Assembly: GCA_027031495.1 (NCBI GenBank) | Contig: JALVQA010000004.1 | Span: 56,070 to 120,069 of the forward strand | Direction: 5' to 3' | Length of the DNA: 64,000 nt | Origin: Candidatus Moraniibacteriota bacterium | GTDB lineage: Bacteria > Patescibacteriota > Minisyncoccia > Moranbacterales > GCA-2747515 | In this document: positions 43,089-49,108 of the stretch, one piece after another | How positions within the stretch are numbered: the stretch's first letter is position 1 | How the letters are laid out: each line of letters begins with the position of its first letter | Program-made: the position numbers and the translations under genes | The notes under the pieces: model-generated | What the model was told of the DNA's origin: nothing | Database searches by the model: none | The model's input: only the letters and a program-made list of their open reading frames with translations

Positions 43089-44102
43089 ATGTCTTTTTTT
43101 ACAACGAAAATCGGTATTGATCTTGGTACGGCGAATACGCTTGTTTTTGTGCCGGGTAAGGGTATTGTTGCAAACGAACCGTCGGTTGTTGCAATATCAA
43201 TTGTGGAAAATAGTGTCATTGCCGTTGGTAATGAAGCAAAAGAAATGCTTGGTCGCACGCCGGATCAAATTATGACAAGCCGTCCATTGCGTGATGGTGC
43301 AATTGCTGATTATCGCATAACAGAGGCAATGTTGCGCTATTTTATAGGCAAGGTTGTGAAAAAATACCAGCCATTTCGTGCTGAAGTTCTCGTTTCCATT
43401 CCTGCCGGCATCACATCAACGGAGCGTCGCGCTGTCATTGATGCTGCCATAAAGGCTGGCGCAAAGCGCGCATACGTTGTCAAGGAGCCAATTCTTGCCG
43501 CGCTTGGCGCGAATATTCCCATTCATGGACCGCAGGGGAATATGATTATTGATATTGGCGGTGGCACAACGGAAATCGCAATTTTATCGCTTGGTGGCAT
43601 TGTGGCTGCGACAAGTGCGCGCGTCGGTGGCGATCGCTTTGATCAAGCAATCATTGACTATATCAAGCGCAATCACAGTTTTGCCATTGGTGAGCGCACT
43701 GCCGAAGAAATTAAGAAAAAAATTGGTTCCGCAATCCTTTTTGCTAAAGAAGAAATAATGGAGGTACGTGGACGCGATTTAACGGGTGGTCTGCCGCGTA
43801 CAATTAAAATCACATCTACGGAAGTGACGGAAGCATTGCAGGATGAATTACGTGAAGTTATTAATGCTATCCGTAAGGTGCTGCAAGAAACACCACCGGA
43901 GTTGGCGGCAGATATTATGGATAAAGGCATGATTCTTTCCGGCGGTGGCGCGCTTTTACGTAATCTTGATCGCCTCATCACAAAAACGATTGGCGTGCCG
44001 TGTTTTATTGCAGAAGACCCACAGCTTTGTGTGGCGCGCGGCACAAGTATGGTGCTTGAGCATCTTGATGTTTACAAACGTTCTCTACTTGTTGATAAAT
44101 AA
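43089..44102 (+). CDS. mreB: Rod-shape protein MreB
   Basis: IGIDLGTANT, IDIGGGTTE and LSGGGALL. Confidence 0.96.
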   Translation: MSFFTTKIGIDLGTANTLVFVPGKGIVANEPSVVAISIVENSVIAVGNEAKEMLGRTPDQIMTSRPLRDGAIADYRITEAMLRYFIGKVVKKYQPFRAEVLVSIPAGITSTERRAVIDAAIKAGAKRAYVVKEPILAALGANIPIHGPQGNMIIDIGGGTTEIAILSLGGIVAATSARVGGDRFDQAIIDYIKRNHSFAIGERTAEEIKKKIGSAILFAKEEIMEVRGRDLTGGLPRTIKITSTEVTEALQDELREVINAIRKVLQETPPELAADIMDKGMILSGGGALLRNLDRLITKTIGVPCFIAEDPQLCVARGTSMVLEHLDVYKRSLLVDK

Positions 44103-45384
44103 GTCTAGTGTTTTTTCTATCGTCTTTTTCATTCTGTATGCTCGCAAGTAACACAAGGAGCCAAAAAATAAGCGCAAGATCATTTTTCCAGTAGGGCGTG
44201 TCAACAAGCCCATGTATCATAATGATGCCAAGTGCACACATAGCACCGAGTACAATGATATCATCTTTTGCGTATTTTTTCTTTTGTACAATGCAAATGT
44301 ACTTTTTACCTATGAGCAATACGACAAGTATAAAGCCACAGAGGCCGATTATGCCAGTCTGAAGCCAAAAAGCAAGAAAGAGATTGTGTGGTTGTGGAAC
44401 TGCCCATTCCGGATAAGGTGGGTAGTTTTTTTGATATGCAAGGTAGACAAATTGAAAATTACCTGGTCCAACACCAAAAAGCGGGTGATCCGCAATAATG
44501 TCAGTGGCAACATGCCAGATTACATATCGTGATGCGAGAGAAGAGTGGTGTGAATATGTAAAGAAGTCTTGTATGCGTGGTGTGCGCCAAAGTGTAGCAA
44601 GTACAAGGGAAAATATTAGGGAAAGTGCGAGCATGCTACCGGTAAACATACGCCATGACCGATAGTATGATGCGAAAAAAAGCACAAGGCCACCACTTGC
44701 CGCGATAATGCCGCCAAGGGAGCGTGTGAGTACAAGTACGATGCCGGTAAGTATAAGTGCAAAGACGATAAATATATACGTTTTCCTTGAGTGATGATAA
44801 TGTCGTACCAATATATAATCGGTAAACATGAGTGGAATAATCGGTGCCAGTGACATGGCAAGGTGATTAGGGGAGAGGTAGAACGCGCGCAAACGGTGGT
44901 CATAGGTAAAAATATCTAAAAAAGCATAAATAATTGCTGCAGTAGCGACAAAGGCACCACCGACGATTAGCGCACGGAAGATGTGTATGCGCGAGATGAT
45001 TGCGTGCCGCAGCGCATAGTGCACGCAGAGCAAAAACACAAACGGCACCACAAACCACCCCTTCACAATTCCAAGTCCGGTGTGCCACGCGCCGCCGGCG
45101 GCTGTAGAGAGAAATGTGCCTATAGTCATGAGCGTCCACGCTATAAGCACAATCCGCAGCGGCGTGTTATCTCGCAAAAAGTGCTGAAAGCACCTGCGCG
45201 CGCCACTCTTTGTTTTTGTGCCCCAAGCGTGCCACAGTGTTATACCGACGATTATTAACACCAATACCTCCAATACATTTGTTGGTATGTCAAAAATGGA
45301 AAATCGTATCAGATATAGTGGTGATGCAAGAATTGTGAGCGGAATTAGTGTGCGAAGGGTAATTTTTGTAAAATGATGTAGCAT
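44005..45384 (-). CDS. O-antigen ligase family (Wzy_C) protein
   Basis: Multi-TM; SPNHLA, SLASRYVIW, GVGPGNF, PHNLFL and HGLVDTPYWKND. Confidence 0.85.
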   Translation of the reverse strand: MLHHFTKITLRTLIPLTILASPLYLIRFSIFDIPTNVLEVLVLIIVGITLWHAWGTKTKSGARRCFQHFLRDNTPLRIVLIAWTLMTIGTFLSTAAGGAWHTGLGIVKGWFVVPFVFLLCVHYALRHAIISRIHIFRALIVGGAFVATAAIIYAFLDIFTYDHRLRAFYLSPNHLAMSLAPIIPLMFTDYILVRHYHHSRKTYIFIVFALILTGIVLVLTRSLGGIIAASGGLVLFFASYYRSWRMFTGSMLALSLIFSLVLATLWRTPRIQDFFTYSHHSSLASRYVIWHVATDIIADHPLFGVGPGNFQFVYLAYQKNYPPYPEWAVPQPHNLFLAFWLQTGIIGLCGFILVVLLIGKKYICIVQKKKYAKDDIIVLGAMCALGIIMIHGLVDTPYWKNDLALIFWLLVLLASIQNEKDDRKNTRLIYQQVENVCKHQDAQAPYLCRAPHKAVGLLQ

Positions 45385-46200
45385 TTATTGTAGCGGACTT
45401 TTAATATTTTTTAGCTTTGGATTTGTTATTTTGGCGTATATTTGTGTCGTGCGGATATTTGTGTGTCCCAGAAGCTCTTGAACATAGCGCATATCGGTGC
45501 CATTTTCAAGGAGGTGAGTAGCAAAAGAATGTCGCAGAGAATGAAAAGTGGCAGGTTTTTTAATCTGTGCTTTTATCAGGCTCTTGCGAAACATTTTTTG
45601 CAATGAAGTGGTTGTCAGTTTATCGCCACGATTAGAACCGAAGACAAAATCGTTCGCATTTTTCCCGGCAATAATATTCCGCAAGTCATTTTGCAGCCTC
45701 TCGGGTAGTACTGAGATCCTGTCTTTCTTTCCCTTTGCCTCTTTGATATGCACTATCAGTTCATCAATATCCAAATCGACCACACGCAAGTTAATGACTT
45801 CGCTAACACGCAATCCACAGGCATAGCCGAGTGAAATCATAAGGCGGTATTTTACATTATCAGTTGCGTTGATAATTTTTTCAATTTCTTCTCGCGACAA
45901 AACAACTGGCAATTTCTTATTTCTTTTGGCAAATTTTAAATCAATCTTCTGTGGATCTTTCAAAACTTCCGCATATAAAAATTTTACGGCATTGAGTGCA
46001 AGGTTGATGGTTTGTGGAGATTGCTTGCGTTTATGCTTATCAAGCAAAAATTCCTCAATAGCTTTTCGCTTATCTTTGATTCTGTTTTTCTTAGAAAAGG
46101 TGATATAATCTTTAATGTAAAGCAAATAGGCTTTACGCGTTTTAGGGGAGTAGTTGCGCAGTCGCAACAGCCGGTCGGTTTTCTCTAAAATTTTATCCAT
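45385..46200 (-). CDS. Short integron-integrase-like tyrosine recombinase
   Basis: N-terminal LRNYSPKTRKAY (SAM-like), KLPVVLS and catalytic GLRVSE, KGKKDR, HSLRHSFATHLLE, LGH, TTQIY; no IntI-specific insertion. Confidence 0.88.
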   Translation of the reverse strand: MDKILEKTDRLLRLRNYSPKTRKAYLLYIKDYITFSKKNRIKDKRKAIEEFLLDKHKRKQSPQTINLALNAVKFLYAEVLKDPQKIDLKFAKRNKKLPVVLSREEIEKIINATDNVKYRLMISLGYACGLRVSEVINLRVVDLDIDELIVHIKEAKGKKDRISVLPERLQNDLRNIIAGKNANDFVFGSNRGDKLTTTSLQKMFRKSLIKAQIKKPATFHSLRHSFATHLLENGTDMRYVQELLGHTNIRTTQIYAKITNPKLKNIKSPLQ

Positions 46201-46349
46201 ACAGGAATTGTAGCAAAAGTTTGTATAACATACAATCTTTTGCTACAATTCAGACGTAGAGTGTAGATAAAAACCAGTTATATTCAATTACGAGCCAGCC
46301 AGCCATACAAAGCATTACATTTATATAATTTAATCAAATATCAATTCTT

Positions 46350-46757
46350 ATGAGTGAATTTAATCATGTTGCAAAAAATCTTCAAGAAGAAAAGAAAGTA
46401 GTTTTTACTGCCCAATCTTGCAAGAACTTCCATCAAAGAATGTTAATCTGTAAGCACGCCTTTGAACAAGGTGTTATTCCCATAAACCCTTTTAATGTAT
46501 TCGGTTATTATCTCTATGAATTAGTTGAAAGAGACTTAGTTAGAAATGGAAATAATAACCTCATGAAAAGATGTGATGAATTATGGGTTTATGGAGAAAT
46601 TAGTGATGGAGTTCTTGCTGAAATTCAAATGTTTAAAAAATTAGGCAAACCTATAAGATTTTTTGACATTTCAAAATTACCTAAAGAAGTCAAAGAGATT
46701 TCTAAACACGAATTGATATTTGAAGATGAAGTAAGAGAATTTGCTGATTCTATCTAA
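46350..46757 (+). CDS. Cassette gene 1: nucleoside 2-deoxyribosyltransferase-like/DUF4406-type protein
   Basis: IPINPF...LMKRCDELWVYGEISDGVLAEI...GKPIRFF; AT-rich. Confidence 0.7.
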   Translation: MSEFNHVAKNLQEEKKVVFTAQSCKNFHQRMLICKHAFEQGVIPINPFNVFGYYLYELVERDLVRNGNNNLMKRCDELWVYGEISDGVLAEIQMFKKLGKPIRFFDISKLPKEVKEISKHELIFEDEVREFADSI

Positions 46758-46822
46758 CGGGCTGGCTCGTAACTCTGAAATTTTCCTTCGGAACGTTGCA
46801 CTAAATTTCAGCCATTCGGGGA

Positions 46823-46910
46823 ATATAACAAGGGATATGAGGTTACGAAGTCTTGCAGACTTCTTCACCCAAATTGCTATCGCAACTTCAGATATTCAGA
46901 AACGTTATAT
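46823..46910 (+). repeat. attC-like recombination site
   Basis: ATATAAC (46823-46829) and GTTATAT (46904-46910) enclose an imperfect inner IR ggatatgaggtt/aacttcagatattc and hairpin aagtct-tgc-agactt. Confidence 0.65.
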
Positions 46911-46944
46911 GAAATAAAATTTTAATTTTAACCACATTCAAAAA

Positions 46945-47289
46945 ATGAAAAAAATAAATCTGATTGTAATTTCAAAGATAATAGCATCCATTATTCTAAT
47001 ATGTCAGTTCATCCCTTCTACTTGGTGGACAATATTTGTTATGTGGGCATACTCTGACTTAGCAAATTTACTATCTTTCCCATTGGAATACCTTTTATTG
47101 ATTGGTATGTATTTAATGCCACTATCTTTTTCTATCTTTTCTATTTTATATTCTAAACATTTCTACTCTGATAATAACTATAAAAAATATATAAGTAGAT
47201 TGTTATTTGTTTTCAATTTGTTATTACTCATTTTTATGATTCACTTTTTCATTTCAGCAGGGATTGGAATGTATCCGGCATTTGACTAA
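46945..47289 (+). CDS. Cassette gene 2: hypothetical membrane protein
   Basis: 114 aa, 3 TMs, very AT-rich, bounded by inverted repeats. Confidence 0.65.
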   Translation: MKKINLIVISKIIASIILICQFIPSTWWTIFVMWAYSDLANLLSFPLEYLLLIGMYLMPLSFSIFSILYSKHFYSDNNYKKYISRLLFVFNLLLLIFMIHFFISAGIGMYPAFD

Positions 47290-47475
47290 AGCTAACGAAA
47301 ATTAAAAATTTACGTCATATAACAGCGTGTATCCGGTTCGGCAGATTTGACGCAATTAGGTTCAAAAGGAATGTCAAATCAGCCTCTCCCAAATTTCGCA
47401 AAAAACAATTAGATTTTGGTCTAGGATACTTTAGCACCTAAACCATGCTAAAATGGTTAGCTACTCTTGTGCCTA

Positions 47476-47750
47476 TGATTGATATTGGTCGCGTTGGTGG
47501 ACGCATTGAACATGACGAAGAGTCAGAGATTGTCTTATGAGGGAAATTCGCGAAGAGATTGTGTGATACTAAAAAACAGCGCCACCATCTTAAATCAGTA
47601 CAGGAGAAAGAGGATACAGATGTAGAAGATTATATCTTTGCTACAGAATTGTCCGAGGACGTTGATGAATTAAGTTTACACGAAGGACGCGCTATGCGGT
47701 TCTTTGCGCTCGGGGAGCTATTAGTTTTGGATATTGTGCGCCACACTATA
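47476..47750 (+). pseudogene. Frameshifted NUDIX hydrolase remnant
   Basis: GGRIEHDEESE and CLMREIREEI in different frames; LHEGRAMRFF. Confidence 0.55.
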
Positions 47751-47836
47751 GGAGTGTCATTATCAACTTCTTAAACCATAGACATGGTGATAAATAGTGT
47801 GGGCTTTTAGCTTTAGGCGCTATTTGTTCTGAGGGA

Positions 47837-49108
47837 TTAATCACTTCCCTTTGCGTAGGTGCTTGCGGCAAGGATGATGAGGAGAAGGGGGAGCGTGTGA
47901 ACGCTAAAGAGCATGGTGTCAAAGAGTCCGTGCGTGCTGAGAATGACAAGACTTGTGGCGCCGGCGAGACCGTGAGCGCGTGGATGGTAGCGCAGGAAGC
48001 GCGCAATGGCGGTGAGAATAAGCGCAATCCAGATGAGTGCTGTGAAGATGCCTGTTTCTGCAGCAATGTCCAGGTAGAGGTTGTGTGCGTAGTACGGGTC
48101 GCGGTAGTCAGCCTGCGGATTGACGGTGAGGGGATAGTTACCAAGACCGACGCCGAGAAGCGGATGGTCTATGATGATGTTGGCGGCATCCCGCCAAATG
48201 AGAACGCGCTGGGTGATGGAGGAGTCCGGGTTGCTGATGATGGAAAAGGCGCGTGCGCCAAGAGGTGTGCTAAAGAGAAGAATGCCAACAACACCAAGTG
48301 TGCCAAGTGTAGTGAGGAAGAGTTTGCGCACAGAGATGGTGCGCGCTCGGATAAGGAGCGTTGCAACTGCAAAGAGTGCGCCAACAAAGAGTGCGACGTA
48401 GGCGCCACGTGTGAACGTGGTGAGTGTGGCGCCGATGAGAAGCGCACTGCCAATGAGCCACAGTAGACGTTTCTTGCGTGTGTGTGCAGTGACGGCGGCA
48501 GCCAGCGCGAATGGTACAAGCATCTCAAAGAAGAACGCGGCCACGTGCGGATCTGGGAAGAAGCCGACGGCGCGCAGGTAGTCTGTGCCGGCGATGTTGA
48601 CGTAGGCGCTGGAGTACGTCGCGACCGTGTGCGCAAACGTCTGCCCGAGGAAGAGTGGTGCGATAAGCGCTCCCCAGAAGTGCATAACGGCATCTGCACC
48701 AACAATAAACTGCGCCGCCCATAGGGTGAGTGCGATGGCGGCAGCGGCGATGCCACCAAGAAGTGCCGTGCGCAGCAGCTGTGCCGCTGCTGCCCACGAG
48801 CGTACCGTGCCGGTAATGACAAAAAACAGCACAAAGAAATTCAGAAGAAATATGAATTTTCGTATAAACCATGTGTAGTCGTGTGCATTGAAAGATGAAA
48901 GAAGTGTGCTTGCGAGAAAGGCGGCAATGAGCAGTGGGATAGATGAGCGTGTAAAAGAAAGTGTACTGGTGACGGTAATGTGTATAAGAAAGGCAAAAAA
49001 GGCAAATGTGATAAGAATGCGAATGAGCGCAATATCAAAACCGCTCAATGGCGAAAGAGCTATCTGAAATGGAATAATAAATGCTAAGAGTGTGAGAAAT
49101 TTCTGCAT
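47837..49108 (-). CDS. O-antigen ligase family protein
   Basis: RAVGFFPDPH, TFTRGAY, RVLIW, GVGLGNY and AHNLYL. Confidence 0.85.
   Translation of the reverse strand: MQKFLTLLAFIIPFQIALSPLSGFDIALIRILITFAFFAFLIHITVTSTLSFTRSSIPLLIAAFLASTLLSSFNAHDYTWFIRKFIFLLNFFVLFFVITGTVRSWAAAAQLLRTALLGGIAAAAIALTLWAAQFIVGADAVMHFWGALIAPLFLGQTFAHTVATYSSAYVNIAGTDYLRAVGFFPDPHVAAFFFEMLVPFALAAAVTAHTRKKRLLWLIGSALLIGATLTTFTRGAYVALFVGALFAVATLLIRARTISVRKLFLTTLGTLGVVGILLFSTPLGARAFSIISNPDSSITQRVLIWRDAANIIIDHPLLGVGLGNYPLTVNPQADYRDPYYAHNLYLDIAAETGIFTALIWIALILTAIARFLRYHPRAHGLAGATSLVILSTHGLFDTMLFSVHTLPLLLIILAASTYAKGSD

Follow-up and report, generated by a model that had tools for sequence, protein, structure and literature searches.

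A putative integron-like cassette array with branched recombination sites beside an integrase lacking the IntI insertion in a Candidatus Moraniibacteriota genome

Introduction

Can gene cassettes be captured by a tyrosine recombinase that lacks the insertion of the integron integrases, which two studies call essential for integron function (PMC8138268, PMC4792948)? The question is raised by a locus in a 64,000-nt stretch of a Candidatus Moraniibacteriota genome (the window; contig JALVQA010000004.1, positions 56,070–120,069, or G000:C4:56070-120069, G000 being the 1.0 Mb host genome). An earlier note on this window had pointed to a 271-aa recombinase and two AT-rich genes; the ORFs were found as claimed, and all strings that it quoted lie where it had placed them. 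Beyond that note, we describe a branched site structure, damage to the first cassette site, a split between cassette frame and cargo, and an empty site in a relative.

Genomic setting

The element is an AT-rich insert of 2,452 bases (GC 0.30–0.33 vs. 0.41–0.56 in the flanks), which lies between two O-antigen ligase-like genes:

44005–45384, reverse strand: host O-antigen ligase-like gene (flank), beginning directly past the integrase stop
47837–49108, reverse strand: second host O-antigen ligase-like gene (flank), adjoining the first ligase gene in the same-genus genome G003

In G003, these two genes overlap without an insert, while a broken integrase relative (75–79% DNA identity), which keeps its docking site and one different cassette, lies several genes off, beyond murA. 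The same-genus comparison rests on G003, the other two same-genus genomes being fragmented at the ligase-gene locus. The same-order genome G046 carries the same locus as L063.

The short integrase

45385–46200, reverse strand: tyrosine recombinase of 271 aa with Phage_int_SAM_4 and Phage_integrase domains (Pfam), without the IntI insertion (alignments)

The catalytic residues (R131, K156, H220, R223, H246, and Y255) are all intact in this integrase and unchanged across 101 aligned relatives. The earlier proposal that the enzyme lacks the IntI insertion was borne out. Its best PDB sequence match is VchIntIA (2A3V), aligned in two pieces, with residues 178–194 corresponding to VchIntIA 182–241 (15 residues there vs. 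58 in VchIntIA), and both insertion parts around patch III are absent from the short integrase in an alignment with three canonical IntIs (~43 residues shorter); the IntI-specific additional domain around patch III (I2) is thus absent by both comparisons. The score against the IntI model TIGR02249 (224.5) lies below the cut-off of 265, as does that against the XerA model NF040815 (203.8; cut-off 220) and those against the XerC/XerD models TIGR02224 and TIGR02225. An alignment-based structure model (alignment A1) reached a pLDDT of 92, compared to only 54 for a single-sequence fold, and most resembled 2A3V (Z 24.3, rmsd 3.9, 264 aligned), followed by XerA (Z 22.0).

In a quick tree of 70 rows, with the short enzymes thinned to about one in three, the short integrases, IntIs, and proteins from Bacteroidota, IS91-linked loci, and Pacearchaeota form one clade apart from the Xer types (SH-aLRT 99), inside which the tree gives no order of short integrases and IntI. 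By scores and clade, the integrase belongs to none of the XerC, XerD, or XerA families. We noted one short-clade integrase (L164:1483-2394), heading a normal array, with its own insertion of ~30 residues right after patch III, unlike the IntI insertion. On a Clostridium plasmid (L161:5001-7035), a related short recombinase overlaps an IS91-family transposase, which is another link between this clade and single-strand DNA.

The docking site

46260–46279, forward strand: attI-like docking site (11-nt left arm 46260–46270; 7-nt overlap 46271–46277)
46205–46251, unstranded: palindrome with 22-bp arms, holding an upstream copy of the docking-site left arm (46220–46235)

The docking site of the window lies 76 bases upstream of the integrase. 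Upstream of the start codons of the relatives, we found the consensus TTCGCATAA-AAAC(G/C)A-GTT, with information at background beyond +12. At least 15 of the 17 motif positions match in 64 of 73 loci, compared to 6 of 1460 shuffles; the motif was derived from the same loci in which it was counted, and a looser 13-of-17 form also matches 15% of shuffles. Two further features played no part in the selection, namely the (A/C)AT that follows the motif in 65 of 68 cases and the fixed distance to the start codon, which is 75–77 nt in 17/17 relatives at ≥77%. The DNA past the GTT (first 40 nt) is distinct in 85 of 86 loci.

Together with the cassette side (GTT-n5-RAAAT), the docking site makes up two 11-nt inverted arms around 7 nt, and the spacing of the junction equals that of attI1 in L171. 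From these features, we infer a crossover at G|TT (46277|46278). Of 72 distinct sites, 38 also have a copy of the left arm 55–57 nt ahead of the G, and the palindrome that holds it in the window is likely an accessory integrase binding site. In L121 (1160-1190), on a contig that has no integrase, cassette 1 of the window stands upstream of hrcA at a motif resembling the docking site, possibly a secondary site.

The two cassettes and their sites

46277–46829, forward strand: cassette 1 body, branched type; its first 9 nt pair with 46821–46829
46286–46289 with 46771–46774: further pairing in cassette 1 (A.C mismatch), with a side branch of 46 nt at 46775–46820
46290–46300 (5′ copy) and 46760–46770 (3′ copy), unstranded: cargo-specific inverted repeat of cassette 1
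46320–46327, forward strand: TTTATATA motif, 23–30 nt before the start codon of the cassette 1 gene
46350–46757, forward strand: cassette 1 gene, 135 aa, DUF7768
46830–46903, forward strand: core of site 1, with stem arms 46831–46841 and 46889–46899; between them, side hairpin 46842–46870, AAAT 46871–46874, second hairpin, and ACTT 46885–46888
46904–47323, forward strand: cassette 2 body, direct type, with 23/26-nt complementary ends
46945–47289, forward strand: cassette 2 gene, 114 aa, hydrophobic
47324–47417, forward strand: site 2, truncated before the right stem arm and GTT
47418–47473, unstranded: scar of 56 nt; its two halves each correspond to an element end at another place in the genome (C12:2519 and C20:60750)

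The self-complementary cassette ends of the earlier note are present, but GTTATAT and ATATAAC do not fit the integron consensus GTTRRRY/RYYYAAC, and the 13-nt repeat that it listed in cassette 1 is actually an 11-nt cargo repeat with two binding-arm bases. Such short repeats are weak alone, with some perfect 13-mer inverted pair in 11 of 200 shuffles and some GTT 9-mer pair in 22 of 200; we nonetheless regard those of cassette 1 as real, because other copies of the cassette keep them. The inverted ends of cassette 2 stand more firmly, as their 23 matches in 26 nt were never reached in 40 shuffles (best 21).

Searching 42 metagenome loci with a relative of the cassette 1 gene, we found the whole cassette 1 body (505–524 of 553 nt identical) in five (L117, L118, L119, L120, and L122), following five different upstream sequences, its start in L121, and its end in L123/L124. 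In L120, it is the first cassette of an array, at the docking site of a 59.6%-identical integrase. Given that one cassette is seen in different contexts, the cassettes are apparently mobile. The reading of the locus as non-canonical cassette capture is supported by these copies in other arrays and by variable GTT...AAC-bounded genes behind the conserved docking site in relatives; invariant neighbours, which the note had named as evidence against it, were looked for, and the neighbours of the relatives proved variable.

The copies also differ at their junctions. In L117, L118, and L120, the site cores behind the shared cassette 1 body differ, beginning with the AAC, a hint that cores may occasionally be swapped by top-strand recombination. 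At both cassette 1 ends in L119 and downstream in L122, junctions without a site core read AAC, four bases, ATT, and the next cassette, and look as if cut at the L arm.

The TTTATATA motif before the cassette 1 gene, which we take to be TATA-box-like, is common to the non-cassette copies L128 and L126 and is absent in the bacterial copies L125, L127, and L130. Two non-cassette DUF7768 copies adjoin archaeal marker genes (L15e in L128, aIF-2 in L150); the DUF7768 gene tree does not resolve an archaeal origin or the direction of transfer. Among the matches listed, most of the more distant relatives of the gene lack cassette ends, and a model of the cassette sites, run on 18 loci with such relatives, gave no match in L125–L128, L130–L132, L106, and L107.

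The 88-bp attC-like site reported after cassette 1 exists, though not as a simple hairpin, and it is damaged: its arms form only 6 of 11 stem pairs, compared to full pairing in the relatives L118 and L205, and on folding it does not adopt the full branched form described below. Its left arm resembles that of L205 and its right arm is of another type, so two sites have probably been joined into a chimera; a search of 231 loci gave no source for the mismatched right arm.

For the cassette 2 gene, a search for relatives found none, and neither cassette gene had a PADLOC or PDB match. The second site, suspected earlier to be truncated, indeed is, with 104 of 110 bases matching a full-length site in L073 up to 47417, where the match ends. 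The scar that follows may be IS1595-like, a label left unconfirmed by a search of G000 in which PF12762 was absent and only weak HTH matches appeared. The array of the window is decayed and, given the mismatched arms of site 1 and the scar that cuts off site 2, likely partly frozen. The 360 bases separating the scar from the second ligase gene (47474-47836) hold an interrupted reading frame.

Structure and strand bias of the branched sites

Across related loci, the cassette sites run in the order AAC, one A, 11-bp stem, side hairpin ending in CCC, A(A/T)AT, second hairpin, AC(T/A)T, right stem arm, 3–4 unpaired bases, and GTT, a description that left out 5 of 39 parser matches as off-pattern. 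With a stricter parser, 1.47 Mb yielded 72 distinct sites, of which 56 are less than 85% alike; a shuffled copy yielded none. In a MAFFT alignment of 29 sites, 87.9% of cells are paired, with 195 double changes, where shuffles give 61 and slid controls no more than 57. The sites were chosen for stem pairing, so the count for the 11-bp stem is partly built in; however, the pairs past the junction (columns 74-131 and 77-80), which were not part of the site selection, covary as well. As the sites are related by descent, none of these counts are independent trials.

The sites are also strand-biased. At arm position 10, an A.C on the top strand, equal to a G.T on the bottom strand, occurs in 48 of the 56 sites, and the comparison of A.C with G.T on the top strand stands at 42 vs. 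5. GCG(N/NN)AGC, an extraordinarily stable DNA mini-hairpin according to PMC13037366, has 38 copies on the bottom strand and one on the top in the same non-redundant sites, compared to an unbiased 547 vs. 591 across the host genome. The bottom strand folds at lower energy in 48/56 sites, and free folding of the circle junctions of L118 and L073 gave the branched form on that strand. The overlaps, of 7 nt at the docking site and 8–9 nt at the cassette sites, are unequal and not exchanged.

A covariance model built from the sites found both arrays of G000 and gave 75 matches in 27 long loci, as well as matches in a Pacearchaeota contig (L086). It found nothing in three canonical integron loci, nor in 12 Bacteroidota, Spirochaetia, and Clostridium loci (L090–L098 and L160–L162), whose recombinases may use other site types. 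In this archaeal contig, the sites lie close to a short integrase, but the docking motif did not turn up. The second array of the host genome (G000:C12:79100-82641; L232, L234) comprises two sites, a gene-less mini-cassette, and AT-rich genes, and reaches the end of the contig; no integrase was seen in it, and one acting in trans could serve it. A scan for a cassette promoter gave 5 vs. 6.4, which is chance level.

Cassette frames, cargo, and cargo repeats

Of 71 cassette bodies, 46 show own-end pairing at variable positions, compared to 11.5% of cross pairs; among those that pair, 25 are of the direct type of cassette 2, and 20 resemble cassette 1 in having a second side branch. The 25 of 71 bodies without own-end pairing include many that start with gene-less mini-cassettes, which the model misses. 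These mini-cassettes (37–48 nt plus a differently built core) are often first in the array (L067, L058, L043, L044, L047, and L054) and are possibly empty frames or selfish units; in L067, one occurs four times, interspersed with gene cassettes.

Each cassette can be divided into a frame and a cargo. Six pairs of frames are 91–94% alike yet bear unrelated cargo, including that of cassette 2, whose frame is 94% like an L073 cassette bearing an unrelated DKNYY gene; the cassette 1 frame likewise bears a different repeat and a different gene (carboxypeptidase) in L205. The switch from frame to cargo falls at the outer edge of the R arm, away from the cut site. The cargo is co-oriented (51 of 56 ORFs) and, among 56 proteins scanned in Pfam, of which 28 were scanned in PADLOC together with both window genes, includes type II and III restriction-modification, GmrSD, PDC-S41, and Ppl-like genes, and many unknowns.

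At the ends of the cargo lies a terminal inverted repeat, which, counted at ≥7 nt in direct cassettes defined without the cargo stem, occurs in 27/27 (median 14 nt), compared to 6.7% of cross pairs. Of 43 cassettes, 16 have their stop codon at the 3′ repeat and 1 has its start codon at the 5′ repeat. To our knowledge, how cassettes are first made is an open question, and these repeats possibly record it as a scar of cassette birth. New cassettes would arise by joining of the cargo at the outer R-arm edge, with a short copy of the cargo 3′ end laid at its 5′ end; the arrangement of the repeats suggests that the 5′ copy was templated in this manner at capture. We think it unlikely, without dismissing it, that the repeats are no such scars and that either the captured units were genes with natural inverted repeats on both sides, or small transposon-like elements, or the repeats arose later by selection for a longer stem. 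The repeats are AT-rich and short (7–32 nt overall, 7–23 nt in the direct type), as pre-existing repeats might be, and a longer stem would help circle folding; pre-existing repeats sit poorly, however, with their presence in every direct cassette, with their being unrelated between cargos on frames that are 91–94% alike, and with 3′ copies that overlap 11–18 coding bases in L213, L063, and L038.

Distribution and host sites

Relatives of the integrase, found mainly in Patescibacteria records, occur in 42 of 401 phylum genomes at E 1e-45 and in 22 of 61 close genomes at E 1e-30. Phage records held no close relative (all <60%), and viral contigs gave 2 matches only, at 27%. Orientation relative to replication stands at 24 vs. 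12 loci (p 0.065; 6/42 neutral), a comparison confounded by coding-strand skew.

The 97 integrase loci fall into 75 neighbour clusters and thus occupy many host sites, which would suit an integrase that also moves its own platform, with the 3′ end as a second attachment site recombining with host sequences near start codons. The empty site and the separate broken copy in G003 would suit this too, as would an ATGA overlap between integrase and host gene, which 11 of 96 integrases show compared to 6 of 271 control genes (p 0.0007). We nevertheless hold such movement to be improbable: host DNA fits the cassette-start profile only slightly (p 0.02) and has a variable base in place of the G, the constancy of the AGY serine codon does not exceed that of another serine, the C-terminal SPL ends canonical IntIs as well, and a deletion up to the stop codon would give the same picture.

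Proposed mechanism

Taken together, the locus is likely a cassette array with its docking site, served by an I2-less recombinase that would insert and excise cassettes through recombination between the docking site, as double-stranded DNA, and the bottom strand of a branched site in its folded form. PMC4792948 and PMC5027507 describe attC bottom strands as cut at AA|C, with extrahelical bases held by I2 blocking the second exchange and replication resolving the junction. In the system described here, the folded site would rebuild two 11-bp Xer-like arms around an uneven centre (6 vs. 8–9 nt), the bottom strand would be cut at AA|C of the R arm, and a single strand would be exchanged, with the junction resolved by replication. 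The side hairpin would split the L arm after base 7, with the G.T wobble at base 10, and the two may impair the L-arm monomer, thereby standing in for the extrahelical bases and I2 in blocking the second cut. The unequal, unexchanged overlaps would agree with a single exchange.

Host XerC/D-type enzymes, or a canonical IntI in trans, might instead move the cassettes, as in phage CTX, with the short recombinase as a passenger. The 11-nt arms do resemble the XerD arm shown in PMC2731167, XerCD recombine folded single strands without I2 (PMC4792948 and PMC5027507), and G000 holds two Xer-like genes besides the short integrase. However, the distance between docking site and integrase start is fixed, the docking-site overlap is 7 nt compared to 6 in dif, and the catalytic residues of a supposed passenger are invariant in the 101 aligned relatives; none of the 401 phylum genomes gave a match above the TIGR02249 cut-off, in a genome scan that scores single stretches, missed the integrase of the window itself, and was used for the cut-off count only. 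We consider such movement by other enzymes highly improbable.

The top strand of the sites carries CTTCGG, a possible RNA tetraloop, which, like the lack of an I2 helix in the integrase and the capability of IntI itself for two-strand exchange on attI x attI (PMC4792948), could be counted for ordinary double-stranded sites recombined by two strand exchanges, with the hairpins as terminators or RNA structures. This is very unlikely given overlaps that differ in length and sequence, the excess of A.C over G.T on the top strand (42 vs. 5), the DNA mini-hairpin motifs on the non-transcribed strand, the lack of terminator-like sites, and an Rfam scan with one chance match and none credible.

Comparison with known systems

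The array with single-strand, I2-less recombination that we favour shares much with integrons (the sedentary integrons of Vibrio with VchIntIA, and class 1 integrons): a divergent integrase, a docking site with a 7-nt overlap and G|TT, co-oriented cargo, sites ending AAC...GTT, and defence cargo. The bottom strand folds ~1.8 kcal/mol better, compared to 2.12 for attC (PMC5027507), and the aadA2 attC in L171 likewise has a GCGTAGC mini-hairpin on the bottom strand. In contrast to integrons, the integrase has no insertion around patch III, the cores read GTT-n5-RAAAT rather than GTTRRRY, the L arm is split by a whole hairpin rather than by single extrahelical bases, the centre is uneven (1 vs. 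3–4 nt unpaired) where attC has a central spacer of 5–6 nt, the cargo has its own inverted repeat, and the platform occurs at many host sites. Of the features that define integrons, we thus found the catalytic residues, an attI-like site by the integrase, and tandem cassette arrays that appear mobile, but neither the IntI-specific domain nor attC sites with canonical cores, spacer, and extrahelical bases; as judged from sequence, the system appears to work like an integron yet to lie outside the definition, with two defining features absent.

Xer/dif systems, including Xer-using elements (phage CTX) and archaeal XerA, share the enzyme without I2, 11-nt arms (PMC2731167), and a folded single-strand substrate (PMC4792948), and XerA structures are the next-best matches of the integrase after VchIntIA. 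They differ in that here one dedicated enzyme of a separate clade stands beside its site, with tandem cassettes and many host neighbours, and in that the 11-nt arms enclose a 7-nt overlap, not the 6 nt between the 11-mers of dif (PMC2731167). Archaeal integrons (Ghaly et al., bioRxiv 2022.02.06.479319) similarly extend arrays outside Proteobacteria and involve cross-domain exchange, but have the IntI-specific domain and canonical attC folds. Short Phage_int_SAM_4 recombinases of Bacteroidota and IS91-linked recombinases of Clostridium have the same domains and share the quick-tree clade, but sites of the present type were not found in the 12 loci searched.

Full-text literature searches, mostly outside subscription journals, gave no account of such a system. 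PMC8138268 describes the insertion as “not fully conserved” in its integron-like subgroup, so short integrases may be grouped there with their cassettes unnoticed.

Implications

A broader reading is conceivable, if somewhat doubtful: the system may be a second, I2-free integron design that is common among Patescibacteria and extends to DPANN archaea, uses a DNA side hairpin in place of the protein insertion, and may resemble the IntI ancestor, with cassettes built on a reusable frame by templated copying and cassette 1 as an archaeal gene in a bacterium. If this is true, the templated cargo repeat would be a sequence record of de novo cassette creation. The frame/cargo boundary and cargo repeat give exact predictions on cassette origin. 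The I2 insertion is what integron detection tools look for, according to PMC8138268, PMC4792948, and bioRxiv 2022.02.06.479319, and an I2-less system in 42 of 401 phylum genomes would mean that a large cassette pool has been missed. Such a system would also offer a natural test of the path by which folded single strands became substrates of an Xer-like enzyme. Given that the cargo includes restriction and other defence genes, the arrays may be defence stores of ultra-small bacteria. At least ten sites were counted in one array (L213, G016:C1:210000-222500), in which a 440-bp cassette occurs in three tandem copies.
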